64,000 nt of DNA from Minisyncoccota bacterium (GCA_018062305.1 JAGOSK010000002.1:5495-69494); one strand, 5' to 3'. Positions 23,674 through 63,070 are shown, counted from the first letter of the stretch. Made by a program: numbers and translations. The notes: generated by a model from the sequence alone, not told the origin.

Positions 23674-23718
23674 GTTGGTTATTTAGGCACGATTTCTGTG
23701 GTTGTATTTTAGTTTTAA

Positions 23719-25695: not shown

Positions 25696-25699
25696 CTTT

Positions 25700-26506: not shown

Positions 26507-26515
26507 ATGTTTATC

Positions 26516-29209: not shown

Positions 29210-29288
29210 TAGGACTGAATTATACTATAAAAATAGATATGATATACTCCATCTTATATCAAATTAAGCTACATTTAAGAAGATTAAA

Positions 29289-31721: not shown

Positions 31722-31772
31722 TATTGAGCGCTATATCTATATCTATCACCATTAACAGTCACGCCAAATTAC

Positions 31773-32915
31773 ATGAAAAAAACTGAAAAAGTTTCGCAAA
31801 ATGTTTCTTCGAAAAAATCTAAAGTTGCACTCATTACAGGTATCACCGGACAAGACGGTATGTATCTTGCAGAACTACTCCTCAATAAAGGATATATTGT
31901 TCATGGTCTCAAAAGACGTTCATCTTCACTAAACACAGAACGTATAGATCATCTCTATCAAGATCAGCATGAAAAGAGTGTTCGATTTTTTCTACATTAT
32001 GGGGATATGACTGACTCAACGAACTTAATCCGTATAGTTCAGCAAGTTCAGCCAGATGAAATATATAATCTCGCAGCGCAATCACATGTACAGGTTTCTT
32101 TTGAGACACCAGAATATACAGCGAACGCCGATGGAATAGGAGTGCTTCGAATCCTTGAGGCAATACGAATTCTTGGTCTCGAAAAAAAGACACGGTTTTA
32201 TCAAGCGTCGACTTCAGAGTTGTATGGATTGGTTCAAGAGGTTCCACAAAAAGAGACCACACCCTTTTATCCGCGTTCACCATACGGTGTTGCCAAACTC
32301 TACGGATTTTGGATTACTAAAAACTACAGAGAAGCATATGGAATGTATGCGTGTAATGGAATCTTGTTCAATCACGAGAGTCCTGTTCGTGGAGAAACAT
32401 TCGTAACTCGAAAAATTACTCGTGCGGTTGCGCGTATCTCACTTGGTTTACAAGACTCATTGTATTTAGGTAATCTCGATTCAGAGCGCGACTGGGGACA
32501 CGCAAAAGACTATGTAGAAGGAATGTGGCGCATGCTACAGCAAAAGAGTGCAGAGGACTACGTGTTGGCAACTGGAGTAAAATATACCGTGCGAACATTT
32601 GTAGAAAAAGCTTTTGCACACGTTGGTATTACTATTGTATGGAAAGGTAAAGGAGTTAACGAAGTTGGATATGATGCGAAAGATGCCTCAAAAAATAAAA
32701 GACCACTCGTAAAAATCAGTAAAAAATATTTCAGACCTGCAGAAGTTGAACTACTTATCGGTGATGCAACAAAAGCTCAGACGAAGCTTGGATGGAAACC
32801 AAAATACACACTTGATGAACTTGTGAAGGAAATGGTTGAAGCAGATGTACTACTTATGAAGAAAGAAATATATTTAAAGGAAAATGGATTCAAGACACTA
32901 AAGAAATATGAATAA
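31773..32915 (+). CDS. gmd: GDP-mannose 4,6-dehydratase
   Basis: [20 protein letters not shown] is the Rossmann GxxGxxG motif. The YxxxK catalytic region and the full-length 380-aa layout match Gmd. Confidence 0.95.
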
Positions 32916-33891
32916 TCTTGCACAAGCAGATTCCGATATGAAGAAAGATTCAAAAATATATGTAGCGGGGCACAATGGTATGGTAGGTTCAGCAATTCTT
33001 CGGAAACTTCAAACCGATGGATACACAAATATACTTGTACGTACTCGAGCAGAACTTGATCTCACAAATCAAAAACAAGTTCATGAGTTTTTTATTCAAG
33101 AAAAACCAGAGTATATATTTCTTGCTGCTGCAAAAGTTGGGGGAATTGTAGCAAATAATACATATCGTGCGGACTTCTTATACGAAAATATTATAATTGA
33201 GGCAAACGTAATACATGCTACAGCTGAATTAAAAAACAATTCAAAGGAAATAAATCCCAAACTTCTCTTTCTTGGTTCATCTTGTATATATCCAAAACTT
33301 GCACCTCAGCCACTCAAAGAAGAGTATCTATTGACGGGTCCACTCGAAGAAACAAACGAGCCGTATGCTATTGCTAAAATTGCGGGAATAAAAATGTGTG
33401 AAAGTTATAGAAGACAATATGGTTGTAATTTTATCTCCGTGATGCCCACAAATCTCTACGGTCCGAATGATAATTATAATGCACAGACTTCGCATGTACT
33501 TCCTGCACTTCTACGAAAATTTCATACTGCAAAAATTTCAAACGCTTCGACAGTAGAGTTGTGGGGGACAGGTACACCACTACGAGAGTTCATGCATGTA
33601 GATGATCTTGCTGATGCCTGCATTTTTCTTATGCAAACATATAACGAAGAGGGAATAGTAAATATTGGGGTGGGTGAAGACCTTACTATAAAAGACTTGG
33701 CACATATGGTGCAAGAGGTTGTAGGCTTTGGAGGTAAAATAGTATTTGACGCAACAAAACCAGATGGAACTCCTCGAAAACTTATGGATGTTACAAGACT
33801 CACAGCTCTTGGATTTAAAGCAAAAATAAATTTAAAAGATGGAATTGCTGCGGTATATAAAGATGTGATTGAAAATAAATTGTTCGAATAA
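32908..33891 (+). CDS. fcl: GDP-L-fucose synthase (GDP-4-keto-6-deoxymannose 3,5-epimerase/4-reductase)
   Basis: [19 protein letters not shown] at the N-terminus. An 8-nt overlap (ATGAATAA) with the gmd stop indicates translational coupling. Confidence 0.95.
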
Positions 33892-40062: not shown

Positions 40063-41070
40063 ATGAATCCACACGAACACGCTCGATATCAAACAGTTTT
40101 CTTTAGTATGGTGTTTTTGACTCTGGGTGTTCTCTCGGTGTTTATTTTCTGGCCATTTTTGACTCCATTGGCACTCGCCGGTATCGTCGCGATCCTTATT
40201 TCGCCAGTATACAAAAAGATTCTAAAAACACTTAAGTCAGAATCCCTTTCATCCATGGTGACTATTTTGCTTTTGGTGATTTTGATACTCGCTCCACTTG
40301 CTGTTGTTTCAAATAAAATCATATCCGAAGCTCAAGGTTTGTATGTATCAGTTACATCAGGAGAAACTATTTCATTTGATTTTATTACTTCAAAGATTGA
40401 ATCAGCAGTTCAAACATATATACCAGAATTTAAATTTAACACTCGAGAATATCTCTCTGGCTTCGCATCTTGGGTAGTAGACAGATTGGGTGGAATCTTC
40501 TCAGGCACTCTAGACTTGGTTGTGAAGTTTGTATTGGGACTTGTGGCACTCTTCTATTTCCTACGAGATGGTGATGAGTTCAAAAAGCAAATCATCTCAT
40601 TTAGTCCTTTATCTGAAGATAAAGATAAATTTATTTCAGATTCATTGAAGTCATCTATCAACTCCGTACTCATGGGATCACTTGCGGTCGCAGTAGTACA
40701 AGGCCTTCTTAGTGGTATAGGTTTTGTTCTCTTTGGTGTACCGAACGCTACCCTCTGGGGAACAGTAGCAGGTGTGGCTGCGCTTGTCCCTGGCGTTGGT
40801 ACAGCCCTTGTGTGGATTCCTGCGGTTATCTATCTATATTTCTATGGCTCTGTAGGTGTTTGGATTGCACAGCTGCTTTGGTCAGTACTACTAGTAGGAT
40901 TGATAGATAATTTCCTTGCACCTTTTATTATAAATAAAGGGGTTAATATTCATCCACTTCTTATCCTCTTTTCTATTCTCGGTGGTCTTCAATTTTTCGG
41001 GGCAGAAGGATTTCTCCTTGGTCCACTTGTTGTCGGCCTATTGTTTGCTCTCATCAAGATCATCAAATGA
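40063..41070 (+). CDS. AI-2E family transporter (PerM/UPF0118)
   Basis: 8-TM architecture with a conserved GLLSGIGFVLFGVPNA...GVAALVPGVG region. Confidence 0.85.
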   Translation: MNPHEHARYQTVFFSMVFLTLGVLSVFIFWPFLTPLALAGIVAILISPVYKKILKTLKSESLSSMVTILLLVILILAPLAVVSNKIISEAQGLYVSVTSGETISFDFITSKIESAVQTYIPEFKFNTREYLSGFASWVVDRLGGIFSGTLDLVVKFVLGLVALFYFLRDGDEFKKQIISFSPLSEDKDKFISDSLKSSINSVLMGSLAVAVVQGLLSGIGFVLFGVPNATLWGTVAGVAALVPGVGTALVWIPAVIYLYFYGSVGVWIAQLLWSVLLVGLIDNFLAPFIINKGVNIHPLLILFSILGGLQFFGAEGFLLGPLVVGLLFALIKIIK

Positions 41071-42077
41071 TTTTACGACCAATACTCATATTGCTCATAT
41101 TTTTTGGCGCACTCTTTTATTTCAAAGAGCCTATTTCTACTATCGCACCAAGTTTCGATCAGCTTCATTCTGCATATGCCGATTCATTTAAAAAACTGTT
41201 CAAGGATATAACTTCTGCTACCTCAAGTGCTGTACTAAATGGCAAACAAAATTTTATTCCATCTTTTGCGGGTACTAACTCTACTTCATCAAGTGTAAAG
41301 ACATCGACAGTCGATGTGTTGGATCAAAACAGTTATGATGCAGATAGATCGACAGTATCAAGTGTCCTCGGTTCAACCCAATCCAATAGGGAATTACTCC
41401 CTGTGGTATCAAATCAAGTCGAACAAAATTTGAATGTGGCTGGAATTGTTTCTGCTACGAACTTCGAAAGAAAAAAAGCGGGATTACCTGATTTAATTCG
41501 AGACCCACTACTGTCAAAATCTGCCGAGATAAAACTACAGGATATGTTTCAAAAGCAGTATTTCCAGCATGTGTCGCCATCAGGAGATAGTGTATCTGAT
41601 GTAGTCCGTAAAACAGGGTATGAATATATTGTAGTAGGTGAAAACCTAGCGCTCGGTGTGTTCGCGGGTGATGCACAAGTTGTAGCTGCGTGGATGGCAA
41701 GTCCAGGGCACAAGAAAAATATTCTTGACTCACGATATCAAGAAATCGGTCTCGCGGTAGGGCAGGGAGTGTATCAGGGTAGAAAACAGTGGCTTATCGT
41801 TCAACATTTTGCAAAGCCTCTCAGTTCATGTGTTTCACCGAACGGTGCCATAAAAAAGACTGTAGATATACAGAAGGCAGATATAGTAGTATTGGAAGCT
41901 AATATAAGCCGTATACGAGCAGAGATAGAGGGCGAAACAGGTGATGCTTACGTACAAAAGGCAAATGAATATAATACGCTGGTTATTGAGTACAATGCAC
42001 GTTTGACAACGCTCAAACAAAGTATTGATGAATACAATACAGCAGTTCGAGTATTCAATGCGTGCGCGGGTATCTAA
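41067..42077 (+). CDS. Membrane-anchored CAP/SCP/PR-1 domain protein with coiled-coil C-terminus
   Basis: N-terminal TM. The CAP core is VVGENLALGVF...WMASPGHKKNILDSRYQEIGLAV. It overlaps the AI-2E gene by 4 nt (ATGA). Confidence 0.75.
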   Translation: MILRPILILLIFFGALFYFKEPISTIAPSFDQLHSAYADSFKKLFKDITSATSSAVLNGKQNFIPSFAGTNSTSSSVKTSTVDVLDQNSYDADRSTVSSVLGSTQSNRELLPVVSNQVEQNLNVAGIVSATNFERKKAGLPDLIRDPLLSKSAEIKLQDMFQKQYFQHVSPSGDSVSDVVRKTGYEYIVVGENLALGVFAGDAQVVAAWMASPGHKKNILDSRYQEIGLAVGQGVYQGRKQWLIVQHFAKPLSSCVSPNGAIKKTVDIQKADIVVLEANISRIRAEIEGETGDAYVQKANEYNTLVIEYNARLTTLKQSIDEYNTAVRVFNACAGI

Positions 42078-49861: not shown

Positions 49862-51064
49862 ATGGCTTTTATCGATGAAATGACAGTACATGTGCGAGCG
49901 GGGCGTGGTGGAAACGGCGTTGTTCGATGGCTGCATGAAAAATTTAAGGAATTCGGAGGACCTTCTGGAGGTGATGGTGGGCGTGGTGCACATGTCTATG
50001 TAAAAGCTGTGCGAGATACGACACAACTTGCGCGATACAAAAATATAAAAGAGTTCAATGCTCCAAATGGTGAAGCTGGCGGAAATAATAGCAAGCATGG
50101 AGGCAATGGCGAAGATATGTATATTGATCTGCCTGTCGGAAGTGTTATCACAAACAGATCTACAAAAGAGGTTTATAGACTCAACCAAGAGGGCGAAAAA
50201 ATACAAATTTTAAAAGGTGGAAATGGTGGTCTTGGAAATGAGAGATTTAAATCTTCTACCAATCAGACGCCTGAAGAGTGGACTCCTGGAAAAAATGGAG
50301 AAGAAGCGGATTTTTATATTGAAGTAGAACTCATTGCTGACGCTGGACTTATTGGTCTTCCAAATGCTGGAAAGTCATCACTTCTGAATGCTTTGACAAA
50401 AGCTCATGCAAAAATCGGTGCATACCAATTCACAACACTTGAGCCAAACCTCGGCGCGCTCTACGACTATGTACTTGCAGATATTCCAGGACTCATCGAA
50501 GGTGCATCAGAAGGACGAGGGCTTGGGCACAAATTTCTCCGACATATAAAACGGACAAAAATGTTGTTCCATTGTATCTCTCTCGAGCATGAAACTGTAG
50601 ATGAAATTCAAGCAGTGTATAAAACGATTCGAAAAGAACTTGAAGACTATCATCCTGATATGATTCTTAAAAAAGAGGTCATTTTACTTACTAAAAGTGA
50701 TGTGTATACTCCGACTCTATTAGCTGAGAAAGTCGCCAAGATTAAATCAAGCATGAAGGAATGGAAAGGAAAAGACGTGCTCGTCGTCTCTGTGTACGAT
50801 ATTGATTCGCTCAAACAGCTAAGTGATTTTTTGACCAAAGAATTTGCTGAAGCAAATAAAAAAGAAATGGAAGAAAAAGAAATAAATGATGCACAAGCCG
50901 AGAAAGATGCGAAGATTGGTAATTTTGAGGGCTTTGAGAACAATGGAACTCAAAAGGCTGCTAAAGCCATGAAAAAAATAGCTAGAAAACCAAGAGTTAT
51001 AAAACCTAAGAAAGATAGTAAGACAAATGCTGGGGGTGCAAAAAGTAGAACAAATAAAAAATAG
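49862..51064 (+). CDS. obg: GTPase Obg/CgtA
   Basis: The Obg fold begins FIDEMTVHVRAGRGGNGVVRW. The GTPase G1 motif is GLPNAGKSSLL. The C-terminal tail is Lys-rich. Confidence 0.95.
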   Translation: MAFIDEMTVHVRAGRGGNGVVRWLHEKFKEFGGPSGGDGGRGAHVYVKAVRDTTQLARYKNIKEFNAPNGEAGGNNSKHGGNGEDMYIDLPVGSVITNRSTKEVYRLNQEGEKIQILKGGNGGLGNERFKSSTNQTPEEWTPGKNGEEADFYIEVELIADAGLIGLPNAGKSSLLNALTKAHAKIGAYQFTTLEPNLGALYDYVLADIPGLIEGASEGRGLGHKFLRHIKRTKMLFHCISLEHETVDEIQAVYKTIRKELEDYHPDMILKKEVILLTKSDVYTPTLLAEKVAKIKSSMKEWKGKDVLVVSVYDIDSLKQLSDFLTKEFAEANKKEMEEKEINDAQAEKDAKIGNFEGFENNGTQKAAKAMKKIARKPRVIKPKKDSKTNAGGAKSRTNKK

Positions 51065-51088
51065 ATATTTAATCTGGTATTCAATCCG

Positions 51089-52702
51089 ATGACAAACGAA
51101 GCAAAAAACGAAAAATCAAACACAATAACTGGTCCATCAGGAACAGTGTACTATCCGGTTATTGGACTCGAAATTCACGCTGAACTCAAGACGCAATCAA
51201 AGATGTTTTGTGCATGTCGAAATAATCCAGATGAACCACAACAAAACAAAAATATTTGTGCGATATGTATGGGTCATCCAGGAACTCTCCCTGTTCTAAA
51301 TAAGGCTGCAATTAAGCACGTAATTCGTGTTGGGGTGGCTGTTGGTGCTGATATTGCGGACTACACCGAATGGGATAGAAAGAACTATTTTTATCCAGAT
51401 ATTCCAAAAGGATATCAGATCAGTCAGTATGCATATCCGCTGATAAAAAACGGTTCAATCACTATCGGCGATAGTGAAATAAAATTGACGCGTATTCATC
51501 TCGAAGAAGATACTGCAAGTTCTTCTCATGATCATCCGCAAGATGCAAAGGGGCAGTCGTACAGTTTGGTCAATTTCAATCGTGCAGGAGTTCCATTGAT
51601 GGAACTTGTGACGGAACCAGTGATTCACGATGCAAAGACTGCTGGAAATTTTGCAAAAGAATTGCAATTGCTTTTGCGTGAGCTCGGAGCAGGGGATGCA
51701 AATATGGAAAAAGGGGAGATGCGTGTAGAAGTAAATATTTCTGTTTCGACAGACCCAAGAGCACATGATTTTCCATATGATTTTAAACATTTCGGGAAAA
51801 AAGTAGAGGTAAAAAATATTAATTCATTCCGTTCAGCAGAGCGTTCTATCGAGTTTGAAATCGCACGCCACATCGATATTTTGGAAAGAGCTGCACAAAA
51901 ATCGCAAGATTCCCAAAAACTCCAAGACCCAACACTGGTTATTGTCCAAGAGACACGTGGTTTCGACGAGACTACGGGAAAAACATTTTCACAAAGAGCA
52001 AAAGAAGATTCACATGACTATCGATATTTTCCTGATCCTGATTTACCAAAACTATTTCTCAGTGAAATTCCAGAATTCAATTTGGAAACTATAAAAGCTG
52101 AACTTCCAACACTTCCATGGCAACGCCGTGCAAAGTATCTAACTGATTTTGAGATGAAGGAAGAGGATGCGGAAATGTTTGTGCAGAATCCGATGTTCAG
52201 AGATTTTTTTGAAGCATTTGCAAGTGAAATTGATGTCGCAGAGAAGGACAAAGTCAAAGCTATTGAGCTAATTAAGCTTGGTATCAATTACATTACGTCT
52301 GATATTGCCGGGCTTGTGAAGAAAACTGGGTCAGAGATCCTTGTGCCGGCTCAGACTCTCAGCGAAATTGTCGAATTACTCAAAGCTGGAGAGCTTTCAT
52401 CAAGAGGAGCAAAGGATTTGATAGCATTATTTTGGCAAGAAGATAAAAAAACACTCGTGCAGGGAAAATCTGCGAATCAAATTGCCGAAGAAATGGGAAT
52501 TCTCATAAAAAATGACCCAGAAGCATTGGAAAAAATGATTCATGAAGTCATAGATGCAAATCCAACAGTACTTGCTAGCTACAAAGCAGGAAAGGAAGCA
52601 TCATTACAGTTTTTTATTGGTCAAATTATGAAATTGAGCAAAGGTTCAGTGAATCCAACTACTGCAAAGGAAGAAATCTTGAGAATTATTGCCTCAAAAT
52701 AG
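51089..52702 (+). CDS. gatB: Asp-tRNA(Asn)/Glu-tRNA(Gln) amidotransferase subunit B
   Basis: GLEIHAELKTQSKMFCAC at the N-terminus. The central conserved block is ICMGHPGTLPVLN...NYFYPD. Confidence 0.95.
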   Translation: MTNEAKNEKSNTITGPSGTVYYPVIGLEIHAELKTQSKMFCACRNNPDEPQQNKNICAICMGHPGTLPVLNKAAIKHVIRVGVAVGADIADYTEWDRKNYFYPDIPKGYQISQYAYPLIKNGSITIGDSEIKLTRIHLEEDTASSSHDHPQDAKGQSYSLVNFNRAGVPLMELVTEPVIHDAKTAGNFAKELQLLLRELGAGDANMEKGEMRVEVNISVSTDPRAHDFPYDFKHFGKKVEVKNINSFRSAERSIEFEIARHIDILERAAQKSQDSQKLQDPTLVIVQETRGFDETTGKTFSQRAKEDSHDYRYFPDPDLPKLFLSEIPEFNLETIKAELPTLPWQRRAKYLTDFEMKEEDAEMFVQNPMFRDFFEAFASEIDVAEKDKVKAIELIKLGINYITSDIAGLVKKTGSEILVPAQTLSEIVELLKAGELSSRGAKDLIALFWQEDKKTLVQGKSANQIAEEMGILIKNDPEALEKMIHEVIDANPTVLASYKAGKEASLQFFIGQIMKLSKGSVNPTTAKEEILRIIASK

Positions 52703-52878: not shown

Positions 52879-55800
52879 ATGAAACAGAGGAACTTAACAA
52901 TCCGGAATCTTTTTGGCATTACCCTCACGGTTTTCATGTTTCTTTTTGCACCAAAAAGTGCCAACGCAGATACTCAGCTTTCGACCTTTCTCTCAGATGC
53001 CTCTAATCTTAAAAGCTTCTCCATTTCCAACCTTTCTATCCTTCCTGCTTTTTCAGATCAATTAAATTCTTTCAATTCATATACCAAAGAGTTGGTAGGA
53101 ACGACGGCTGGTGTCACTGAAGAAATTACTAAAAATGTATCAGAGGTAAAATCTCTCGCTGATGCGGTGATCACACAAGTGTCACAAACAATCGGTGGAG
53201 TGTCTAGCGAAATGTCACGTACAGCAGTGTCGCAGATTGCTTCACAATCCGCACAGGTTTCTGCCTCGGTATCGGATTCAGTTAATGGTAGTCTAGAAAA
53301 AGCATACGGATTTCTAATTGATAAAACTGCAAACATGTTTGGTCTGTTCTTCAACGTTGCAAACGACGAGTCAAAAGATGTGCCAGAAGATGCACTGTTG
53401 GATAATAAAAATATAATTGAAGATGTTACAGACGGTAGTACTGGAAATGAAATTTCTAATCCAACACAAATACCTCCTCGAACGACGACATATACCATAA
53501 CTAATTCGCCTGTTACATCTAAAACATCAAACACAAATACCGCATCAAATCTCTTAAATAACAATTTTATTCAAAATATTCTCAAAAGAATAAGCGCTCT
53601 TGAGAATTCACTTCAGAATACAATTGACAAAAGTTCTATCGGCGGTACTCCACTCAATTCCGCATATCCAGCTCCAATATATCAATACATTACTAACAAC
53701 TATGCAGGTGGAGGCGGAAGCTATAGTGTCCCTGCAGATACGACAGCGTCTACTAACGCAATAGTTACTTCTGCCGTGAGTACTTCAGCAGCATCACTGC
53801 AACAACAAATAGATGTACTTTCAACTTCTGGATCGGGATCAGGAAATGCAACAAATACATTTGCGTATATTATTGCAACATCGACGAGTGCAACGTCTAC
53901 CTTTGCAGGAAATATTGATATAGGGGGGAATTTGATTGCTGGTGGAAACTTGATAGCTACGGGCAATATTCAGGCGAATGCTTTCTATGGTGATGGATCA
54001 AATCTTACAGGTATTACTTCTTTTTCTACATCGACCACTCGAGGTGTATTATCATCGAGTGCAACGGGTCTCACCTATAACGACTCGACTGGAGATTTTT
54101 CACTTACATCTGGATATAATATTCCGCTCACCGCATCGACAACGGAGTGGGCTACTGCATATGCCAGCACAACAAATCTCACGACTTTTTGGTCAACACC
54201 TTCAACTCGTATCACAGCTGGTACTGGTTTGTCTTGGACTGGAAATACACTTAACAGTACAGGTGTAACTTCTATTGGTGGACTAACTGGAGTAGTGGCG
54301 ACATCCTCGCTTGGTATCACTTCAAGTCAGTGGACAACAAATGGATCAAATATTTCGTACTCTGCTGGCAACGTCGGTATAGCCACAACAACTCCCGGCT
54401 CTGCACTGACTGTGGCAGGAGATGTTCTCTCTACAGGCTCCTTGACTATTGGAACCACTTTAGTAAGAACAGGACAAGGAACACTTTTTGATGGAAATAA
54501 TTTTATTGCATTAGGTGGAAATGCTGGTTTCAGGAGTAATGGTGGCAACATGACTTTGGGTAACGGAACAGACCCATATGTTTTAACAATTCGTGGAGCA
54601 TCAGGACTATACGCTGCTAGTACTGCGGCAATTGGATTTACTTCATCTACTTCTTATGGTGGGACGCTCGATACAAACATTTCGAGAATTTCAGCTGGAG
54701 TTATAGCTGTAGGCACGGGAGCTACTGGTAGTAGCGCAGGTACACTTCTTGCGACTGCTATCGGCATAGCCACCACGACACCAGGCTACGCACTCACAGT
54801 TGCGGGAGACATTTCCCTGACAGGCGCACTTCGTGCAAATGGAGATGCGGGAACTTCGGGTATGGTACTTCTATCAAACGGATCAAGCGCACCAACGTGG
54901 GTAGCTACATCAAGTCTTGGTATTTCTGGAGGAGGTGGAGGAAGTGGAACTGTAAACTCAGGTCTCACAGGACAAGTGGCGTACTATGGCGCTGATGGTA
55001 CAGCAGTGAGTGGTACTTCAACATTATTCTTCTCCGGCGGAAATATCGGAATCGGTACAACAACTCCAGGCTCAATGCTTACAGTTTCTGGAAATGCATT
55101 TATCGGAGGGACCTTAACAGCAACAGGAACAGTAAGTGTAGCAGCCCTTATCACTGGAACTGTTGCAAGTGCACCCACGATTGATTTTGGTGCAGACATG
55201 AGCAATGTATTAATGATTTCCGGCGGAACTGGTGGTCGTATAGCAGGATTTGGAAATATGGGAGGAGGTCATCTAGCAGTACGATTAAGCAGTGCAGTTT
55301 TCCTTGAATGGTCTGCACCAAATGATCCGCGTCAGGGAGTTGACACAGCATTTCAACGTCTTGCTGCTGGTAAAATTAGCTTAGGTAATGGAACATCAAA
55401 TGATATAAGTGGAACCCTTGCTTTGGGTAACCTTGGTATCGGATCAAGTACACCAACAGCAAGATTGAGTATTGTTGGGACGTCAGGTGCGACTACAGCT
55501 TTGATAAATATTGCTTCATCTACAGGTACATCTTTATTTAATGTGTTGTCCAGTGGAAATGTAGGAATCGCTACAACAACTCCTGGCTACGCACTCACTG
55601 TGGCAGGAGATTTTTCTCTAACAGGCGCACTTCGTTCGAGTGGAAACGCTGGTACATCAGGAATGGTTTTGCAAACTACTGGAACAGGTACACAATGGGT
55701 AGCTACATCAAGTCTTGGTATTTCTGGAGGAGGAGGTGGTAGTTTAACTGGTACAACAGGTCAAGTTGCATACTTTTCAGGAACGGACACAGCAGTAGGT

Positions 55801-57291
55801 ACATCCTCGCTCTTTATAGCAACAGGTGGAAATGTGGGCGTGGGGACTGTTTCTCCATCTGCTCGGATTCATGCTCTGTCAACAACCGAGCAGCTCCGCC
55901 TTGGATATGACGCTTCAAATTACTCTAAATTTACAGTAGGTTCAGCTTCAGGTCTAACGATAACTCCCGGTGTAAACGGTACATCTGCATTCAACTTCAC
56001 AAAAGCAGATGGTACAACATCGATCTTGAATGTTGATTCGACAAATGAATATGTAGGAATCGGTACAAGCGCATCAGGTGCAAAATTAGATGTCTATAGC
56101 GCAACTAATGGTCTTGCAACCTTAAGACTTGAACATACTTTCGGAAAATATGGCGCAACATCTCCTTTTTTGAGATTTAAATATGGTTCTGATTCATTTT
56201 TAACTGATATTTACACAGGTACATTCAATCAATTTACTATTGATCATTCTGGAAGTGATATGTATATATTCACGGATTCGAACAGAAATATGTCTTTACA
56301 AAAAGACGGAGGTAATGTTGGTATTGGGGAGACCTCACCGGGTTCTATTCTATCTGTCTCAGGTGGAGGAACTTTTGGTACCTCTTATGACACTACAGTC
56401 TCTCCTGCCAACGGCCTTCTTATTGAGGGAGACGTTGGGATAGGTACGACGACCCCTATAGCAAAACTTTCTGTTGTAGGTTCTATCAACGCTACGAGTC
56501 TTCTTGGAGGATCAACGAATCTTACTGTTGATGCAAACGGAAATATTATTCGAGACCCATCAGACCAGGCACTTAAAGAAAATATCATAACCCTTGAAGA
56601 TTCACTCACGAAGATATCACAACTCAGAGGTGTAAGATATGAATGGAAAGATAAAGTACGATTTGGTAGTTCGACAGAAATTGGAGTAATTGCACAAGAG
56701 GTTGAACTTGTTGTACCTGAAGTTGTATCATCGGGAGGCTCGTACAAGTCAGTAAATATAAAAAACCTTGTGGCTCTTCTTATAGAAGGTGTCAAAGAAT
56801 TAAAAGTTCAATTTGATGTGGTTAAAGAAAAAGTTGTAGCAATTTCTTCATGGTTTGGTACAGACGGAGATAGATTCAATGTGAAAGGTCTTGTCTGTGT
56901 AGATGATGTGTGTTTGACAAAAGATCAGTTCAAACAATTACTAATCAATACCGGAGGAACGAGCGGTGTGGATCCTGTTGTGCCTACTCCTAGTGCTGGT
57001 GATTCTGAAACTTCTCAGAGCTCTGGAGACGAAGAAAATACAGAAAATGGAACGAGTACACAGAGTGGTGATATAGATAGCGGTGCAAATAGCAATGCGA
57101 CCAACGGAACAAGTACAACGGCACCACCCCCAACATCAACTCCAACCCCACCCGAAACTGAAACTCCTGAACCAACACCCGAGCCGACTCCTGCTGTAGT
57201 GGAACCTGCCCCTACACCAGAACCTGCTCCCGCACCCGCACCCGCACCCGCACCTGAACCCGCGCCAAGTCCTGCCTCCGCCGCCGAATAA
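52879..57291 (+). CDS. Giant (1470 aa) secreted phage-tail-fibre-like protein with an internal intramolecular-chaperone (Peptidase S74/endosialidase ICD-like) domain and a Pro-rich C-terminal tail
   Basis: Signal peptide MKQRNLTIRNLFGITLTVFMFLFAPKSANA. At least 4 GN(V/I)GI(A/G)TTTPG..LTV.G repeats are present. The C-terminal block DPSDQALKENIITLEDSLTKISQLRGVRYEWKD...EIGVIAQEVELVVPEVV matches the SDxxLKENI...GxIAQEV consensus of self-cleaving tail-spike chaperone domains. Confidence 0.85.
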   Translation: MKQRNLTIRNLFGITLTVFMFLFAPKSANADTQLSTFLSDASNLKSFSISNLSILPAFSDQLNSFNSYTKELVGTTAGVTEEITKNVSEVKSLADAVITQVSQTIGGVSSEMSRTAVSQIASQSAQVSASVSDSVNGSLEKAYGFLIDKTANMFGLFFNVANDESKDVPEDALLDNKNIIEDVTDGSTGNEISNPTQIPPRTTTYTITNSPVTSKTSNTNTASNLLNNNFIQNILKRISALENSLQNTIDKSSIGGTPLNSAYPAPIYQYITNNYAGGGGSYSVPADTTASTNAIVTSAVSTSAASLQQQIDVLSTSGSGSGNATNTFAYIIATSTSATSTFAGNIDIGGNLIAGGNLIATGNIQANAFYGDGSNLTGITSFSTSTTRGVLSSSATGLTYNDSTGDFSLTSGYNIPLTASTTEWATAYASTTNLTTFWSTPSTRITAGTGLSWTGNTLNSTGVTSIGGLTGVVATSSLGITSSQWTTNGSNISYSAGNVGIATTTPGSALTVAGDVLSTGSLTIGTTLVRTGQGTLFDGNNFIALGGNAGFRSNGGNMTLGNGTDPYVLTIRGASGLYAASTAAIGFTSSTSYGGTLDTNISRISAGVIAVGTGATGSSAGTLLATAIGIATTTPGYALTVAGDISLTGALRANGDAGTSGMVLLSNGSSAPTWVATSSLGISGGGGGSGTVNSGLTGQVAYYGADGTAVSGTSTLFFSGGNIGIGTTTPGSMLTVSGNAFIGGTLTATGTVSVAALITGTVASAPTIDFGADMSNVLMISGGTGGRIAGFGNMGGGHLAVRLSSAVFLEWSAPNDPRQGVDTAFQRLAAGKISLGNGTSNDISGTLALGNLGIGSSTPTARLSIVGTSGATTALINIASSTGTSLFNVLSSGNVGIATTTPGYALTVAGDFSLTGALRSSGNAGTSGMVLQTTGTGTQWVATSSLGISGGGGGSLTGTTGQVAYFSGTDTAVGTSSLFIATGGNVGVGTVSPSARIHALSTTEQLRLGYDASNYSKFTVGSASGLTITPGVNGTSAFNFTKADGTTSILNVDSTNEYVGIGTSASGAKLDVYSATNGLATLRLEHTFGKYGATSPFLRFKYGSDSFLTDIYTGTFNQFTIDHSGSDMYIFTDSNRNMSLQKDGGNVGIGETSPGSILSVSGGGTFGTSYDTTVSPANGLLIEGDVGIGTTTPIAKLSVVGSINATSLLGGSTNLTVDANGNIIRDPSDQALKENIITLEDSLTKISQLRGVRYEWKDKVRFGSSTEIGVIAQEVELVVPEVVSSGGSYKSVNIKNLVALLIEGVKELKVQFDVVKEKVVAISSWFGTDGDRFNVKGLVCVDDVCLTKDQFKQLLINTGGTSGVDPVVPTPSAGDSETSQSSGDEENTENGTSTQSGDIDSGANSNATNGTSTTAPPPTSTPTPPETETPEPTPEPTPAVVEPAPTPEPAPAPAPAPAPEPAPSPASAAE
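54781..55750 (+). repeat. Intragenic direct repeat: two copies of about 170 bp, about 85 % identical (54781..54948 and 55582..55750), about 800 bp apart in the giant gene
   Basis: ccaggctacgcactcacagttgcgggagac...gtagctacatcaagtcttggtatttctggaggagg recurs with few substitutions. At protein level both copies read PGYALTVAGD.SLTGALR...WVATSSLGISGGGGGS. Confidence 0.8.
56551..56870 (+). other. Putative autoproteolytic intramolecular chaperone domain within the giant protein (predicted Ser-Lys dyad Ser1228/Lys1233; Ser codon at 56560..56562)
   Basis: The SDQALK motif is aligned by eye to the S-D-x-x-L/V-K cleavage motif of endosialidase-type ICDs. Confidence 0.55.
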
Positions 57292-57360: not shown

Positions 57361-58404
57361 ATGACATCAAACACGGGCACAGTAAAAAAAGTAGCAATTA
57401 ACGGAGGAGGACGAATTGGACGAGCATTCTTGAAACTCGCGGTTATGGAACCGTCACTTGAAGTGGTAGCTATCAACGACCTCGCTGATATCGGCAACAT
57501 CGCGTATCTCATGAAATATGACAGTGCATATGGACGGAGTAATCTCGATATCAAAGTTGATGTGGAAAAAAATTCGTTCATCATCAATGGTAAAGAAGTT
57601 AAATATGTCAGTGAAAAAGATCCTGCAAATCTTCCATGGGCAGCACTTGGCGTGGACATCGTCCTCGAATCTACTGGACTCTTTACTTCATATGAGAAAG
57701 CGAGTGCTCATATCAAAGCTGGTGCGAAGCGAGTCGTCATATCAGCTCCTGCAAAAGACGAAGCGGGTGCAACTCAAGCGGTAACAGTTCTCATGGGAAT
57801 CAACACTGGGGATATGCCAACATGCGAAGTGTCATCGAACGCATCATGTACTACAAACGCGGCATCTCCACTCATCTCTATATTGAATGATAAAATTGGT
57901 ATCGAAAAAGCAATTCTCAATACAACTCACGCATACACAGCAAGTCAGGCACTTGTAGATGCTCCAAACAAAAAAGACTGGCGAGAGGGTAGAGCGGCCG
58001 CTATGAACATGGCTCCATCATCAACAGGTGCAGCAAAAGCAGTGACGCAAGTTATCCCTGAACTCAAAGGTAAGTTTGACGGTATTGCAGTACGAGTGCC
58101 GGTTATCACGGGTTCTCTTGTAGATGTTACATTTATTGCGAAACGTGCGACGACAGTAGAAGAAGTAAACCAAATCCTTCGAGATGCTGCAGCAAGCGCT
58201 AACTGGAAAGGAATCTTCGATGCAACTGACGATGAGCTCGTGTCACGGGATATTGTAGGAAATCCTCATGCATCTATTGCAGACCTCAAGATGACACGAG
58301 TGGTGGATGGAAATCTCGTGAAAGTACTTGCATGGTATGACAATGAAGGAGGGTATACGCATACTCTCATCCAGCATGTGGTGGAGGCGGGGAAGTTGAT
58401 ATAA
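57361..58404 (+). CDS. gap: Glyceraldehyde-3-phosphate dehydrogenase (type I)
   Basis: NGGGRIGR for NAD binding. The active-site segment is SNASCTTNAASPL, retaining the catalytic Cys. Confidence 0.95.
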   Translation: MTSNTGTVKKVAINGGGRIGRAFLKLAVMEPSLEVVAINDLADIGNIAYLMKYDSAYGRSNLDIKVDVEKNSFIINGKEVKYVSEKDPANLPWAALGVDIVLESTGLFTSYEKASAHIKAGAKRVVISAPAKDEAGATQAVTVLMGINTGDMPTCEVSSNASCTTNAASPLISILNDKIGIEKAILNTTHAYTASQALVDAPNKKDWREGRAAAMNMAPSSTGAAKAVTQVIPELKGKFDGIAVRVPVITGSLVDVTFIAKRATTVEEVNQILRDAAASANWKGIFDATDDELVSRDIVGNPHASIADLKMTRVVDGNLVKVLAWYDNEGGYTHTLIQHVVEAGKLI

Positions 58405-58424: not shown

Positions 58425-58703
58425 ATGCCAAAAGAAACTTTTGTAGAAGGAATATTTGTAGGTTCGGAGAGTCCTGTTGGAAAAGAGTTTGCCAAACTTT
58501 CTCCAGAAGATCAGCAGCTCATTGCGGATGCGTTAGCCGAGATAACACATGATGGTCCAGGTGTATGCGATATTGTCCCAGAAGATGGCGTAAATGCCTT
58601 CGTACAACACCTCCGAAATTATATGTCAGTTGAAGGTGAAGATCCAACAGGTCTAAGAAATGACGCTGCCATGGCAGTTAAAAGGATGTTGATGTTGGAG
58701 TAG
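58425..58703 (+). CDS. Hypothetical acidic small protein
   Basis: 92-aa ORF with window-typical codon usage and no recognisable motif. Confidence 0.4.
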   Translation: MPKETFVEGIFVGSESPVGKEFAKLSPEDQQLIADALAEITHDGPGVCDIVPEDGVNAFVQHLRNYMSVEGEDPTGLRNDAAMAVKRMLMLE

Positions 58704-58705
58704 GA

Positions 58706-59236
58706 GTGATGAATAAGAAGGTAGTATGTTATAATTCACACATGAACCTCGATATATTTAAAAAAAAGATTCCATATGTGCTCGCTATAAGTAGTATCCT
58801 TGTTGTCTCAGTACTATGTGTTTCTTATATTATGATAAGCCAAAAAATAACCCCCGATATACTTTTTAGTAACAGCACTTTTATGAGAAAAGATCTAAAA
58901 CAAACTCAAGGTGAGGAAACTCAAGTTGATCCAAATCCAAATGTAGTACCTTGGGTGCCACAGGAGATGACAGAACTTGAGGCAAAAGATTTAGCAAAAG
59001 ATAAGGCTATAGAGGCTGGCCTCACAACTGCACCTAGAGAGTGCCTCAGTGTAACTTTGAAGAAGAGGGATACAGATGAATTTGGAGATACTGTTACTTA
59101 TGTGGTACGTGAACTGAAAAATAAGACATGTGGTGGCGTCGCTGGAGACCCTGTATATGTTAATAAATTCAGCGCTAACTTAAAGACCGGTGAGGTTTCT
59201 TGGACGATGTATGACACTGAGGACAGTATAATATAA
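58706..59236 (+). CDS. Hypothetical membrane-anchored protein
   Basis: TM helix IPYVLAISSILVVSVLCVSYIMI. The real start is probably the internal MNLDIF. Confidence 0.45.
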   Translation: MMNKKVVCYNSHMNLDIFKKKIPYVLAISSILVVSVLCVSYIMISQKITPDILFSNSTFMRKDLKQTQGEETQVDPNPNVVPWVPQEMTELEAKDLAKDKAIEAGLTTAPRECLSVTLKKRDTDEFGDTVTYVVRELKNKTCGGVAGDPVYVNKFSANLKTGEVSWTMYDTEDSII

Positions 59237-59360
59237 GCCAATTTTCAAAAGCTAGCCCATTTCAGACAAAATTATCCACAGCCCCAGGGTGGGTTGCTTG
59301 CCCTAGAGATATAAGGCGAGTTATACTTTAATTGCATTTTACTAATACAATATAAATTAA

Positions 59361-60935
59361 ATGATTAAATCAGCACTTGCGGTTTTTGGAGCTATCGGAT
59401 ATTTTTTTGCCGGATTAACAGGACAAGTAGACACTTCTAATTCTAAAGCACAGGTTGCAGACCCTGTTGCTATAGAGGCTTCAACAACCCCTCCTGTTTT
59501 GACTAGTACCGCAACTTCTACTGGTACGACAACTCCCACAACCACAACAGATCCAATTATTACCACTGCAACTGTTGATAAACAAACTTTTGATAAGCCA
59601 TCTACTGTTACTGTTTCATGGGTAGGAAAAAATATAGTAGCGACAACTCCAATCTCAGTATCAGTTGTTAATGCGAGTACAAATGTACAAGCTATCGCTC
59701 CAACAAACACTGCTTTTTCAGTAGGTAAAAAAGCACTTACTATTCCAAATACATTCAAAGATGGAGGATATAGTATTCTATTGAAGGCGACTATAAACAA
59801 AAAAGTACTTACACTCGCTTCTGTTCCGTTTACAGTAACTTCTCCAGCTATACCTGATGCTCAGATTTCTGTAATCTACCCTATGAAGGGATACACTTTT
59901 AAAGGAGAAAGGAATCAGCCTATTGAAGTGAAGTGGGATTTTAAAAATATCCCAGCGACTACTCCTGTAACGTTTGTGCTTGTTAATTCTGCTACGGGTG
60001 AGGAAGTACCAGTCACTACAACAGCAACAGTCCTTTCGGTTAAAACTAAATTAGTTAAAATTACCGGTGACCTGAAAAAACAATTATATTTAGATGAGGC
60101 GCCACCAGGTTTATACAAAATGAAAGTTAGTGCTCATCCTCTTGGAAAATCGAGTGTACATGCATACTCTGAAGAATTTGTTCTTGGGTACGCTCCTGGC
60201 GCAACAAGTTATCCTCGTTCAGATATAATGGTTTTATCTTCTACAAGTACTGAATATACAACAGGAGATACAGTTAAAGTAGGTTGGACTGGTAATTTTA
60301 ATGCTAATCCGAGTGATAAAATCACCCTAACGATGTGGTCGAATGGTTATATTGCTGGTAATCTTTCAGTCCCAATACTGCTCGGATCAGCGCCTATTCT
60401 GAATCATTCAGCTGAGTTTAAAATACCAGCAGGTGCTTCCACTGGAGAATACGATATTAAAGGACGTATTGCTCCAATGGGCAGCCCGTATCCTCATAGT
60501 GTAGAGTCTATTGATAAAAAATCTGCAATAATTAAATTCAACAAGAATAAAGGATCAACACTTCCTGTAAAAATTGTCCTAACTTCGCCAGTAGCTTCAA
60601 ATATTCTGATCAATACTGACTTTGGTACTCAATATGTAAATTTAGCTTGGACAGCATCAAATTATGGACCAAGTGATAAAGTAGACATATATGTGGCCCC
60701 AAAAGGATACGATCCATCTACTCTTGAAAATTGGCTTGTTATAAAGAATTCACCTGTTGCAATTATGGGTAGAATCGGTGGCTCCACTCCAACTTTAAAC
60801 AATAGATTAAGTATGCATAATTCTTCTCTAAGAAAACTCCCTATTGGCACATACAATGTCATTCTAAAACCAAATTTCGCTAATGTTGCCAGTACATCTG
60901 TCTTGGTCTCAGGAGATATAAAGGTAACTAAATAA
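59361..60935 (+). CDS. Secreted Ser/Thr-rich repeat protein, paralogue of the 34369..37167 protein
   Basis: N-terminal hydrophobic segment and a poly-Thr linker. Repeats carry the same W-T/D...WT-type motifs (VSWVGKN, KWDFKNIPATTPV, KVGWTGNF, NLAWTASNYGPSDKV). Confidence 0.7.
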   Translation: MIKSALAVFGAIGYFFAGLTGQVDTSNSKAQVADPVAIEASTTPPVLTSTATSTGTTTPTTTTDPIITTATVDKQTFDKPSTVTVSWVGKNIVATTPISVSVVNASTNVQAIAPTNTAFSVGKKALTIPNTFKDGGYSILLKATINKKVLTLASVPFTVTSPAIPDAQISVIYPMKGYTFKGERNQPIEVKWDFKNIPATTPVTFVLVNSATGEEVPVTTTATVLSVKTKLVKITGDLKKQLYLDEAPPGLYKMKVSAHPLGKSSVHAYSEEFVLGYAPGATSYPRSDIMVLSSTSTEYTTGDTVKVGWTGNFNANPSDKITLTMWSNGYIAGNLSVPILLGSAPILNHSAEFKIPAGASTGEYDIKGRIAPMGSPYPHSVESIDKKSAIIKFNKNKGSTLPVKIVLTSPVASNILINTDFGTQYVNLAWTASNYGPSDKVDIYVAPKGYDPSTLENWLVIKNSPVAIMGRIGGSTPTLNNRLSMHNSSLRKLPIGTYNVILKPNFANVASTSVLVSGDIKVTK

Positions 60936-61014
60936 GATTAGTACTTTCATAAACTGTATTGTGAACAAAAACTGTCGGCTTACATAATCATATGAAAGTA
61001 CTAATTGAATCAAT

Positions 61015-61494
61015 ATGCCCAACAACCCCTGGAAAATATCAGATGATGAAAGTTTTCTAACAAGCTCAGACGGCACAGCTACTGTTAGATATGAGCAGTT
61101 ATCTGAATGGCGTATGAACGCACCACTTGGTGGAGAGTGTTATATAGATGTGAAATTGAACGTCAATGATGTAAAATCATACAAAGTTTCCGATATGGCA
61201 GGATATCCCGCTGTTTGGAAAAATGATGGAAAAAGTTTTGCAATACCACTTTGGATTATTGTAAAAAATGAAGATGAAGAACAATCACAGACAGTGTTTC
61301 AGAGACTTGGTGTGGTTGATGTCGAAAAGCTTACATTGACGACGTATCAGAGAAAGTTTGAGGTGCTCAACATCGAGTCATTTGTATCTAGTACAGTCAC
61401 GGCTATTGATAGCCCTATTTATCTGCCAAAAAATATTGAGTTCGATATTGAAAAAGAGGCTGTTGAGAGCGTTGTAGAATTGAGGTTCGTTTAG
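61015..61494 (+). CDS. Hypothetical protein
   Basis: 159-aa ORF with no motif. Confidence 0.4.
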   Translation: MPNNPWKISDDESFLTSSDGTATVRYEQLSEWRMNAPLGGECYIDVKLNVNDVKSYKVSDMAGYPAVWKNDGKSFAIPLWIIVKNEDEEQSQTVFQRLGVVDVEKLTLTTYQRKFEVLNIESFVSSTVTAIDSPIYLPKNIEFDIEKEAVESVVELRFV

Positions 61495-61540
61495 AATATG
61501 GTATTTGAGAGCTTTACAACATCATAATAATACCAAACCC

Positions 61541-62251
61541 ATGCCACCATCAAACCTAGAACTCTTAAAAAATATGTTTACAGAAGGCTACACGCACACA
61601 CCTGGCGGGCTTTTTCCGGCTACTGCACAGTTTATATGTAGTACTTTGCCTGTATGCGACCTTTCTTTGGGGAAAAGTAAAGACGTCGTAATTCATGGAG
61701 AAGTCACAATTCCGCAAACCAATCAACGTGCGAGTGCATTGCATATTGTATGCGCAGGAGTCACGGGTGACGTGTTCGGTTATTTTAGACCAAATAACAC
61801 CTTGGTAGGTGCTGTGAAGATTGTATTCGTCCATGAAAGTAATGCTGGCGAAAACTCCACCCCAGTAGACGAGTCTAAGCTGACATTTACAGAAATCGGC
61901 ACAGTTAGAGTTGATTCATCGATGGTACAGGTTGCTACGTCTGGTTTTCAGAAACTATGTGAAGAGGCTGATCAAAGCCTTGAGAATTCAGGCGGAGATC
62001 CAGCTGAGTTTCTTGAAAAATTGCAGAGTTCAGAAATCCCAGGGTTTACCTCTGCAAAGTCTGATGACACAGGGTATTCGTCTGTGACGACTATAAATGA
62101 TGAGTCATCTGTTGATATAAGTGCTGGATATGGTGATGGCCAATATCCAGTGGTGCTCGGTGTAGATGAAAAAGGTGACACACAAATCGTATATATTGAT
62201 TTCTTATTGTTTCAGAGAGCGGATATTATTGAAAGGATTATTAAGGGTTAA
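61541..62251 (+). CDS. Hypothetical protein (C-terminus GYGDGQYPVVLGVDEKGDTQIVYIDF, reminiscent of DUF4241)
   Basis: The ATG at 61541 is preferred over the track start. The family assignment is a recollection, not a search result. Confidence 0.4.
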   Translation: MPPSNLELLKNMFTEGYTHTPGGLFPATAQFICSTLPVCDLSLGKSKDVVIHGEVTIPQTNQRASALHIVCAGVTGDVFGYFRPNNTLVGAVKIVFVHESNAGENSTPVDESKLTFTEIGTVRVDSSMVQVATSGFQKLCEEADQSLENSGGDPAEFLEKLQSSEIPGFTSAKSDDTGYSSVTTINDESSVDISAGYGDGQYPVVLGVDEKGDTQIVYIDFLLFQRADIIERIIKG

Positions 62252-62272
62252 GGTATAATTGTAATATCCACC

Positions 62273-63070
62273 ATGCCTACAAAAAGTAAAATCATCCTCA
62301 TAGTACTCGGGATACTGGTTTGTATAATATGGTCTCCAATTGTTTTTAAATTTGTTGCAAATATGTTTGTTGATGAAGCGGGTACCTCTCAGTCAATACA
62401 TGCGACTGACAAGACACTCAAGGTCTCCAAAATAGAATATAAAATGGTCCCTGGAAAATACACGACCATCTCTAGTGCATCCGCATCATCTAGTTCATCG
62501 TCTACCTTGTATACATACCCTCAAATTATCAACTATCTGAATGTCGAGTCTATGAAAATGGCGAATGCGGTCATCAGAGATGAATTGCATGATATAGGCT
62601 GTGAAGACAAGTTTGAAGTGAAGTCGATGAACGTGAATTACAACCAGAATGATATTTTTGATGTGAGTACTAGGTTTTTTACTGATGCCTGTAACAGTAT
62701 ATGGCAAGGTGCATATCCTGTAGATAGTATCAAAATACAGATACTGATAGACATGAAGACGGGCGAGCGAGTCTATTTTGAAGATATTTTTGCAGATTAT
62801 GAGAGGGATGAAGATGAGATATTGAAGACAATATATAAGACGCTGATTGAGGAAAGTGCAGGCCTAAGTGCAGATGCAGGTACCTGCAATACTCTAGAGA
62901 ATCTAAAGAGTGTCTCACATTGGATTACTTTATCTGCATCAACAAGTGAGCTAATTGTTACTGCAGATTACCCTCATGTCGCAGAAGCTTGTACAGAGAC
63001 TGTCACTATTCCTGTCAAAAAACTCTTACCTTTTACTTCTGATGATTCTATATTGAGACGAATAAAATGA
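62273..63070 (+). CDS. Membrane-anchored hypothetical protein (RsiV-like DUF4163/DUF3298 architecture suspected)
   Basis: N-terminal TM (IILIVLGILVCIIW), then an extracellular domain beginning YPQIINYLNVESMKMANAVI. Confidence 0.45.
   Translation: MPTKSKIILIVLGILVCIIWSPIVFKFVANMFVDEAGTSQSIHATDKTLKVSKIEYKMVPGKYTTISSASASSSSSSTLYTYPQIINYLNVESMKMANAVIRDELHDIGCEDKFEVKSMNVNYNQNDIFDVSTRFFTDACNSIWQGAYPVDSIKIQILIDMKTGERVYFEDIFADYERDEDEILKTIYKTLIEESAGLSADAGTCNTLENLKSVSHWITLSASTSELIVTADYPHVAEACTETVTIPVKKLLPFTSDDSILRRIK

Follow-up and report, generated by a model that had tools for sequence, protein, structure and literature searches.

A secreted, S74-chaperoned fibre protein, and candidate host-attachment adhesin, encoded in a conserved housekeeping slot of a Patescibacterial genome

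The DNA considered here is a stretch of 64,000 nucleotides from a Minisyncoccota bacterium (GCA_018062305.1 JAGOSK010000002.1:5495-69494), referred to in its whole length as the window, in which a gene at 52879–57291 on the plus strand encodes a large secreted protein with the build of a tail fibre. From its ATG start the open reading frame (ORF) specifies a precursor of 1470 amino acids (147.8 kDa and pI 4.5, both computed), in exact agreement with a first-pass annotation of the same DNA, which had taken the product to be a secreted fibre. The claim of secretion is borne out by the first 30 residues (52879–52968, plus strand), which form a Sec-type signal peptide, MKQRNLTIRNLFGITLTVFMFLFAPKSANA followed by DTQ, as judged by eye and from hydropathy (KD19). 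The three parts of a Sec signal can be recognised in it, namely a basic n-region, a 14-residue hydrophobic core and a cleavage site falling between A-N-A and D. This is the sole hydrophobic stretch of the protein, KD19 exceeding 1.6 at residue 6 only, and the positional orthologues keep the N-terminal pattern M-K-x-R-N-L-T-I-R-x-x-F...P-x-x-x-x-A. Neither NCBIfam nor PADLOC returns a match for the fibre protein, an exact look-up of its sequence gave no entry, and scans for promoters and terminators gave results at or under shuffle expectation.

The gene is flanked upstream by obg and gatB (49862–52702, plus strand; obg at 49862–51064 and gatB at 51089–52702) and downstream by gap, encoding a type I GAPDH (57361–58404, plus strand), all three assigned by NCBIfam. 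The gene content of the window further comprises 16S rRNA, tRNA-Ile, secD/F, secA, pyruvate kinase, a surface-polysaccharide cluster, RNase J and an oligopeptide-binding protein. Of the other ORFs in the 64 kb, those scanned gave no match to any phage, reverse-transcriptase or defence family, and the earlier picture of a gene lying between housekeeping neighbours with no phage genes nearby is therefore confirmed. The organism is probably a tiny, host-dependent bacterium of the candidate phyla radiation (CPR), or Patescibacteria. Its placement in the Patescibacteria (Paceibacteria/Parcubacteria lineage), in keeping with the CPR-like cell proposed before, is supported by the relatives of the fibre, since these are almost all Patescibacterial and include syntenic orthologues named as Pacebacteria and Taylorbacteria. 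In all, 151 relatives were collected, mostly from Patescibacteria; 120 were listed, and 71 of these carry the chaperone domain to which we now turn.

A single Pfam match is found in the fibre, to Peptidase_S74 (PF13884), at aa 1228–1283 with 56.9 bits against a cut-off of 22 (E 2.6e-15), and PHROG profiles of tail-fibre and baseplate C-termini match aa ~1146–1320 with E-values down to 3e-28. The complete intramolecular chaperone domain (ICD), as delimited from Pfam, PHROG, AlphaFold2 (AF2) and Foldseek, extends over aa 1228–1323 (56560–56847, plus strand), the Pfam core ending at 1283 and the last helix, from homology and from the AF2 model, at about aa 1323. The model itself, a monomer of aa 1140–1365 computed from 27 sequences, has predicted local distance difference test (pLDDT) values above 90 over the ICD. 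Its best Foldseek matches in the PDB are the ICA of MyRF (7dc3; E 3e-7, target-normalised TM 0.68), the K1F endosialidase (3gw6) and phi29 gp12 (3gud), with weak matches to Bdellovibrio fibres in addition. The S74-type chaperone domain called in the first-pass annotation is accordingly upheld both by the Pfam check and by a fold that matches those of solved ICDs.

The predicted autocleavage site lies at the very start of the domain, between P1227 and S1228, and is followed by a putative dyad S1228...K1233 within SDQALK (56560–56577, plus strand), which aligns with the cleavage site of the MyRF ICA. Among the 72 ICD-bearing sequences, that is, the fibre itself and its 71 relatives, both dyad residues (within SDQALKENI) are invariant in 72/72, and D1229 is present in 65/72. 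By homology, the fibre is likely to be processed at P1227/S1228, which would yield a mature chain of aa 31–1227 (119 kDa), in which Thr, Gly and Ser abound, and a C-terminal fragment, S1228–E1470, with a computed mass of 25.3 kDa, much as the ~25 kDa foreseen for it. Indeed, a profile match to fibre or chaperone families, conservation of the Ser/Lys dyad and an export signal are the findings on which the first-pass annotation had made its proposal depend, and all three were obtained.

Upstream of the ICD, at 54367–56559 on the plus strand, motif positions, profile matches and segment conservation delimit a beta-helical shaft with nine capping loops. The loops share the motif G-N-[VIL]-G-I-[GA]-T-T-T-P-x-x-x-L-x-V-x-G, with copies at aa 499, 628, 723, 852, 895, 986, 1059, 1147 and 1186, and a six-frame translation of the 64-kb window gives zero matches to it elsewhere. 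Capping loops have been described in the 'mosaic adhesive trimer' (MAT) fibres of B. bacteriovorus, 21 of which are encoded on its chromosome, and the S74 domain that closes 13 of these carries SDxxxK (Caulton et al. 2024, Nat Microbiol, PMC10769870). Crystallised MAT fragments of 334–370 residues measure 95–142 Å (PMC10769870), which by rough extrapolation would give the window fibre a length of some 25–35 nm. In these proteins the shafts are trimeric beta-helices whose edges are capped by loops of the form V-G-G/N-pi-x-x-P-x-x-x-L, a consensus found also in MyRF (PMC10769870). When a profile of the C-terminal 226 aa of the window fibre was compared with PDB structures, it matched Bd2133 (7e-15), MyRF (3e-14), Bd3182 (3e-9), Bd1334 (8e-8) and Bd2439 (6e-5). 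The Bd2133 match consists of three stretches, each at a GNVGIG..P..KL.V.G loop, and Bd3182, Bd1334 and Bd2439 likewise align on the loops. Since the matches fall on the capping loops, the repeats are themselves to be read as capping loops and the window fibre as a homologue of the MATs. In other words, the 'collar-like' repeats of the first-pass annotation are real, in nine copies, but they are the beta-helix capping loops of MAT and MyRF proteins and not phage Collar domains, while the tail-fibre-like build that it proposed is sustained by the PHROG and MAT/MyRF profile matches. That the protein is a secreted, S74-chaperoned fibre of the MAT or tail-fibre kind can be held with high confidence.

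The most widely conserved part of the fibre is a shaft repeat unit, defined from homologue alignments at aa 365–500 (53971–54378, plus strand), FYGDGSNLTGI ... TGLTYN..TG.FSLTSGY.IPLTASTTEW ... TPSTRITAGTGLSW.GNTLN, which has no family assignment. At aa 391–420 within it, 78 of the 120 homologues align, with 74% identity. The unit is present in one copy in the window fibre and in 1–9 copies in its relatives, 264 copies being found across 84 proteins. Within the shaft there is also a duplication, of aa 628–715 against aa 895–982, and the shaft repeats are diverged at the level of the DNA (66–85% identical). The block that is least conserved in all compared sequences, from segment comparison, is aa 986–1145, after which come the residues of the fibre tip, aa 1146–1227, adjoining the cleavage site. 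HxH metal-binding fibre motifs are present in some relatives and are not found in the window fibre. A diversity-generating retroelement (DGR) or phase variation was considered and rejected, there being no reverse transcriptase in the window and the DNA repeats being so far diverged.

The position of the gene on the chromosome is conserved. An obg–gatB–fibre–gap slot, with 0–2 small genes between fibre and gap, is found for four relatives, P0004 (from a 'Pacebacteria' metagenome-assembled genome, MAG), P0001, P0002 and P0010 (from a 'Taylorbacteria' MAG), and the syntenic loci with the same gene order are L001, L003, L004 and L006. Upstream, the block of RNase J, substrate-binding protein and SecG is present in the syntenic loci too, where the contig reaches, and gap lies downstream of ICD fibres in six further, more distant Patescibacterial loci. 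In the four syntenic loci the flanking proteins are 69–84% (Obg), 65–84% (GatB) and 83–98% (GAPDH) identical to those of the window, whereas the fibres, with lengths of 1171–2093 aa, reach 33–42% in their best alignments, which cover the N-terminal part. With the same slot in four genomes, conserved flanks and a diverged fibre, the locus is stable and vertically held, with a content that is turning over fast.

The manner of this turnover can be seen from the genome with the closest flanks (GAPDH 97.7%), in which the N-terminus of the fibre is 45% identical to that of the window fibre, the aa 365–500 module 80% and the module that follows the ICD 87%, with the ICD just 30% identical. More distant genomes, by contrast, carry ICDs that are 79–84% identical to that of the window (segment comparison). 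Such a distribution is that of cassette exchange, as would be expected of a receptor-binding protein. The fibre gene diversifies, therefore, by module shuffling and by change of length within a fixed housekeeping slot.

These observations bear directly on whether the gene is the remnant of a degenerate prophage or tailocin, in other words a tail-fibre gene that has been stranded and is without a cellular role. The best annotated sequence matches are, it is true, phage tail fibres, but these matches are at most 48% identical and reach no further than the ICD. Moreover, the 64 kb contain no other phage gene, the ORF is intact at 4.4 kb, and it begins with a Sec signal peptide, which virion fibres are without. 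In four genomes at least the slot is filled as well, and the flanks there have drifted apart to 65–84% identity. We regard a phage remnant, on this evidence, as a very improbable origin for the present-day gene.

The syntenic comparison also brought some features of the surrounding genes to light. A conserved small partner gene for the fibre was considered and rejected, since the small membrane proteins of loci L005 and L006 are not homologous to the 176-aa ORF of the window or to the 194-aa ORF of L001. Those of L005 (9959–10495) and L006 (7380–7850 and 12827–13321) are, however, homologous to one another, being single-pass membrane proteins of 156–178 aa with 31–37% identity. The two loci are unrelated, and in each these proteins adjoin S74 fibre genes, in L006 to either side; a counterpart in the window was not found. 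In L003, the locus of the closest relative, an Eco47II-type restriction enzyme and a DNA methylase lie between secG and obg (2578–4610), and these are not in the window. Downstream, rpiB directly follows gap in L001 and L006, whereas in the window six ORFs stand between gap and rpiB (58425–63070), so that a second variable region adjoins the fibre slot. The insert includes a single-pass membrane protein (58706–59236), a secreted, Thr-rich protein of 524 aa with a weak MG2-like match (59361–60935) and a DUF4241 protein.

The ICD of the fibre is not at its C-terminus, as had been noted before with an estimate of about 170 trailing residues; the actual figure is 147 residues after the whole ICD, or 187 after the Pfam match, which is close enough. 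The first 39 of these, aa 1324–1362 (56848–56964, plus strand), constitute a two-Cys hairpin and helix module, WFG.DGDRFNV.G.VCVDDVCLTKDQFKQLL, defined from its Cys positions, AF2 and a cluster search, and modelled as a beta-hairpin and helix with pLDDT 70–83. C1340 and C1345 are the sole cysteines of the fibre, both are invariant in 33/33 sequences, and the consensus of the C-x4-C unit is LCVxDxCVTKxQFKxLL. The remaining 108 residues, aa 1363–1470 (56965–57288, plus strand), are from their composition an acidic low-complexity tail (P 24%, T 16%, A 14%, S 12%, E 11%) with zero Lys or Arg and a net charge of −17, and motif checks show both a transmembrane (TM) helix and an LPXTG motif to be absent from it.

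The Cys-hairpin module is present in 41 of the 72 ICD-bearing sequences (the window fibre included), with 6 having another two-Cys module (GITIYD..TG.PYC...G.C) and 15 an essentially terminal ICD. A profile search of 1.84 billion proteins returned 1799 cluster representatives, in which the module always lies ~80–170 residues from the C-terminus. In 87 of the 97 new representatives with enough upstream sequence the S74 ICD stands directly before the module, at a median gap of 1 residue; in the remaining carriers it follows another C-terminal domain or occurs as tandem copies in small proteins. As the latter, P0191, P0209, P0242 and P0169 among them, hold 2–5 copies and are without an ICD, the C-x4-C hairpin and helix appears to be an independent folding unit. 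No Pfam family matches it, which for a module with ~1800 cluster representatives is a small, genuine gap in the domain catalogue, and it is not in the phage records searched, whose matches cease where the ICD ends. In P0091, P0113, P0074, P0211 and P0231, which are fibres without S74, the Cys module and acidic tail come after a different conserved C-terminal domain (…GRVPVKV..ENG.IK.GD.L..S..PGYAMK…). This domain has no Pfam match, and it may serve as a substitute for S74 in assembly at the C-terminus.

The taxonomic range of the module and the lengths of the post-ICD extension were taken from 38 named genome loci, found with two peptide patterns and representing a biased taxonomic sample. In 26/27 complete Patescibacterial loci, 81–220 residues follow the ICD, as against 7–24 in Bacteroidota and 32–46 in Bdellovibrionia and Bacteriovorax. 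The Patescibacterial extension nearly always ends in an acidic Glu/Pro/Thr-rich tail (26/27 loci), which is found in 0/9 of the Bacteroidota or Bdellovibrionia loci. The non-terminal ICD, put forward in the first-pass annotation as unusual, is therefore unusual with respect to phage, Bacteroidota and Bdellovibrionia, but it is systematic in Patescibacteria, where from these sequences it appears to be the rule, as a lineage-specific extension.

What might such a cassette do? The cleavage site precedes the whole of it, so that its action must fall either before cleavage or within the released fragment. Patescibacteria are generally held to be without an outer membrane, and the cassette poses the question of how a trimer that depends on a chaperone comes together on the outside of a monoderm cell; its most plausible role is as an aid to assembly or tethering during folding in that setting. 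It could be conjectured, although we give the idea little credence, that Patescibacteria adapted the phage S74 fibre to an outer-membrane-less cell by adding a lineage-specific C-terminal cassette, with a disulfide-capable C-x4-C hairpin and a long acidic Pro-rich tail, which would keep the three chains tethered or stapled at the envelope while the ICD folds the fibre, autocleavage then being the release that arms a fibre for host recognition. If this were true, the shuffling gene in the obg–gatB–gap slot would be a main host-range determinant in Paceibacteria.

The cassette could also be part of a release switch, in which it would hold the precursor at the envelope or export site until S74 cleavage, more than a mere folding step, sets the assembled fibre loose from this tether, in a manner analogous to the release of MyRF from the membrane of the endoplasmic reticulum (ER). 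Such a switch would be in keeping with an extension that is near-universal in Patescibacteria and absent from diderm lineages, and with a hairpin module that stays 87% identical even beside an ICD of just 30% identity and is also found after C-terminal domains other than S74. On the other hand, neither a TM helix nor a sortase signal nor any known wall-binding domain is found in the tail, and an aid to solubility or assembly accounts for the same data. A release function of this kind seems to us unlikely.

At the other end of the mature chain, the N-terminal region, aa 31–345 (52969–53913, plus strand), is common to the positional orthologues only, as judged from an alignment with eight of them. 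Its conserved islands are QSASV..LN..LEK.YGF.IDKTA..L.PFF (aa 127–158), IQNIL.R..ALE (aa 230–242) and QYITN.Y.GG.SYSVPADTT (aa 269–289). MAT fibres are located on the cell surface, where one of them binds prey glycans, and they are proposed to rest on the predator surface by their invariant N-terminal domain, with the variable C-terminal tips binding the prey (PMC10769870). By analogy with these, aa 31–345 is presumed to be the cell-proximal end of the window fibre and to have an anchoring role.

Several observations weigh against a cell-held, host-directed fibre. The AF2 model of the N-terminal 345 aa, from nine sequences, has a mean pLDDT of 37.8 and helical propensity only, the N-terminus looking helical or disordered, and neither in this model nor in Pfam was the invariant beta-rich domain of MATs (~130 aa, after the signal peptide) detected. 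There is, moreover, no LPXTG motif in the fibre, no lipobox or N-terminal Cys and no second TM or hydrophobic segment, and anchoring by sortase, as a lipoprotein or through a TM span was rejected on these grounds. A host-specific receptor-binding tip would be expected to vary, whereas the tip that precedes the cleavage site is among the better-conserved parts. Furthermore, to our knowledge not all Paceibacteria have been proven to be episymbionts.

With the anchor motif missing and the N-terminal model uninformative, the fibre could simply be released into the medium. The main rival to a host-contact adhesin is indeed a shed or structural fibre, that is, a released extracellular fibre or a component of the envelope or matrix, which would serve as cell coat, biofilm matrix or general surface attachment, or be shed, and would not be an organelle of host recognition. 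Besides the missing anchor, the uninformative N-terminus and the relatively conserved tip, it would be consistent with the predicted removal of the signal peptide, and a housekeeping slot shared by every positional orthologue would also suit a constitutive structural component. Against this, the gene changes at a much higher rate than those beside it and exchanges cassettes, as interaction proteins typically do, and its characterised cellular homologues are adhesins. In addition, relatives with a helix-turn-helix (HTH) domain may be N-terminally tethered to the membrane. Such a domain takes the place of the signal peptide in the Patescibacterial S74 fibres P0023, P0026, P0031, P0036, P0044, P0046 and P0111, on the basis of Pfam MerR/HTH_17 matches for P0046 and P0111 and of N-terminal sequence or source name for the others. 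Should the HTH domain be followed by a membrane span, these relatives would fit an orientation with the N-terminus at the cell. We consider the shed or structural fibre to be rather unlikely.

The fuller reading, that of a Sec-exported precursor giving a homotrimeric, MAT-homologous fibre which is cleaved, retained on the cell and tipped with an adhesin, is in our view probable. Trimerisation, cleavage, retention on the cell and the host cell as ligand are steps that we infer, retention by the N-terminus and adhesion to the host being argued from analogy. In such a scheme, the precursor would be exported and its signal peptide (aa 1–30) removed, whereupon three S74 domains (aa 1228–1323) would associate and template the folding of the beta-helical shaft, the nine capping loops closing its edges. 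Ser1228, activated by Lys1233, would then cut the chain at P1227/S1228, such that a 25-kDa fragment made up of the ICD, the Cys hairpin and the acidic tail would be freed and the tip of the fibre exposed. The 119-kDa mature chain (aa 31–1227) would remain held on the cell via its N-terminal region, with the tip pointing outward as an adhesin.

Partner recognition in the CPR/Patescibacteria is largely unknown outside the cultivated Saccharibacteria, for which type IV pili have been implicated, and most Paceibacteria are uncultured. A MAT-homologous fibre in a fixed and easily found slot offers a concrete, expressible and testable candidate for the gripping of a partner. A recombinant mature tip could be used to seek the partner cell or glycan, and host range might be predicted in metagenomes from the variable cassettes.

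Elsewhere in the window, the 16S rRNA gene (region 6522–10153) is short, with 1403 nt aligned to the full 1533-position model, and is followed by a 364-aa ORF (8846–9940) and then by tRNA-Ile (10080–10153). No 23S gene is found in the remaining 54 kb of the window, and the rRNA genes therefore seem to be unlinked. A VirD4/TraG-like coupling protein for type IV secretion (T4SS), of 745 aa and with weak TrwB and T4SS-DNA_transf matches, is encoded at 15867–18104, adjoining radC; it is solitary, other T4SS genes not being nearby. The surface-polysaccharide cluster (18143–33891) contains several GT2, GT9 and GT11 glycosyltransferases, methyltransferases, a flippase, a Wzy_C-TPR protein and a GDP-mannose dehydratase and epimerase, and its GC content over 22–30 kb is 0.35, compared with ~0.40 elsewhere. 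There are also a likely exported protein of 932 aa with three Kre9/KNH-type Ig-like domains (34369–37167), just upstream of secA, and a likely exported protein with a CAP (cysteine-rich secretory protein) domain (41067–42077).

In the S74 proteins of phages a trimeric beta-helix precedes the ICD, which is released after folding. With these fibres and spikes, as exemplified by the K1F endosialidase (3GW6), the L-shaped tail fibre pb1 of T5 (4UW8) and phi29 gp12 (3GUD), the window fibre shares the fold of the ICD and the Ser-Lys dyad. The phage proteins are, however, virion components that are encoded within phage structural modules, have a terminal ICD and lack a signal peptide, in all of which the window fibre is the opposite, and its post-ICD cassette is matched by none of the phage records. 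The ICA of MyRF (7DC3) is the best PDB match in sequence and structure, has the same capping loop before its cleavage site and is likewise not C-terminal. MyRF differs in being a eukaryotic transcription factor of the ER membrane, in which a TM helix and a luminal domain follow the ICA and cleavage frees a DNA-binding trimer, whereas no TM helix comes after the ICD of the window fibre. Its combination of a DNA-binding domain with an S74 chaperone is met again in the HTH-bearing Patescibacterial fibres.

The S74 subgroup of the Bdellovibrio MATs is represented by Bd3182, which cuts itself at S782 and in which the S782A change abolishes cleavage (PMC10769870). Like the window fibre, its members are chromosomally encoded, have a signal peptide and a length of ~1000 aa or more, possess a beta-helical shaft with the same loops and a C-terminal S74 domain with SDxxxK, and evolve as mosaics by swapping of their tips. 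Unlike the window fibre, which has 147 residues beyond its ICD in the form of the Cys hairpin and acidic tail, they end in the S74 domain; and they belong to a diderm predator with a repertoire of 21, where here there is a single copy in the window of a Patescibacterium. The supplement of the same paper places MAT-like proteins in Micavibrio, Uabimicrobium, Omnitrophica and Dokdonia and names no Patescibacteria (PMC10769870).

Within the CPR, adhesins of the Absconditicoccaceae and Vampirococcus (PMC13059738, PMC8080830) resemble the window fibre in being very large, signal-peptide-bearing and proposed as host-interaction factors. They are built from FN3, Ca-stabilised adhesin repeat, ConA, fibrinogen C and integrin domains, and S74 architecture is not mentioned in the text that was searched. 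Within the limited set of literature consulted, nothing was found that links endosialidase or Peptidase_S74 chaperones with Patescibacteria or CPR. Several Patescibacterial relatives do, however, already bear the NCBI label 'tail fiber domain-containing protein', and chromosomal surface fibres that end in S74 are established in Bdellovibrio, such that the design has a precedent. It is not new in kind, the window fibre being a Patescibacterial representative of a class of fibres that is known from Bdellovibrio and that databases annotate automatically as it is. What is new here is the lineage-specific post-ICD cassette with its uncatalogued Cys-hairpin module, the conserved obg–gatB–gap slot and the documented shuffling of cassettes within it.

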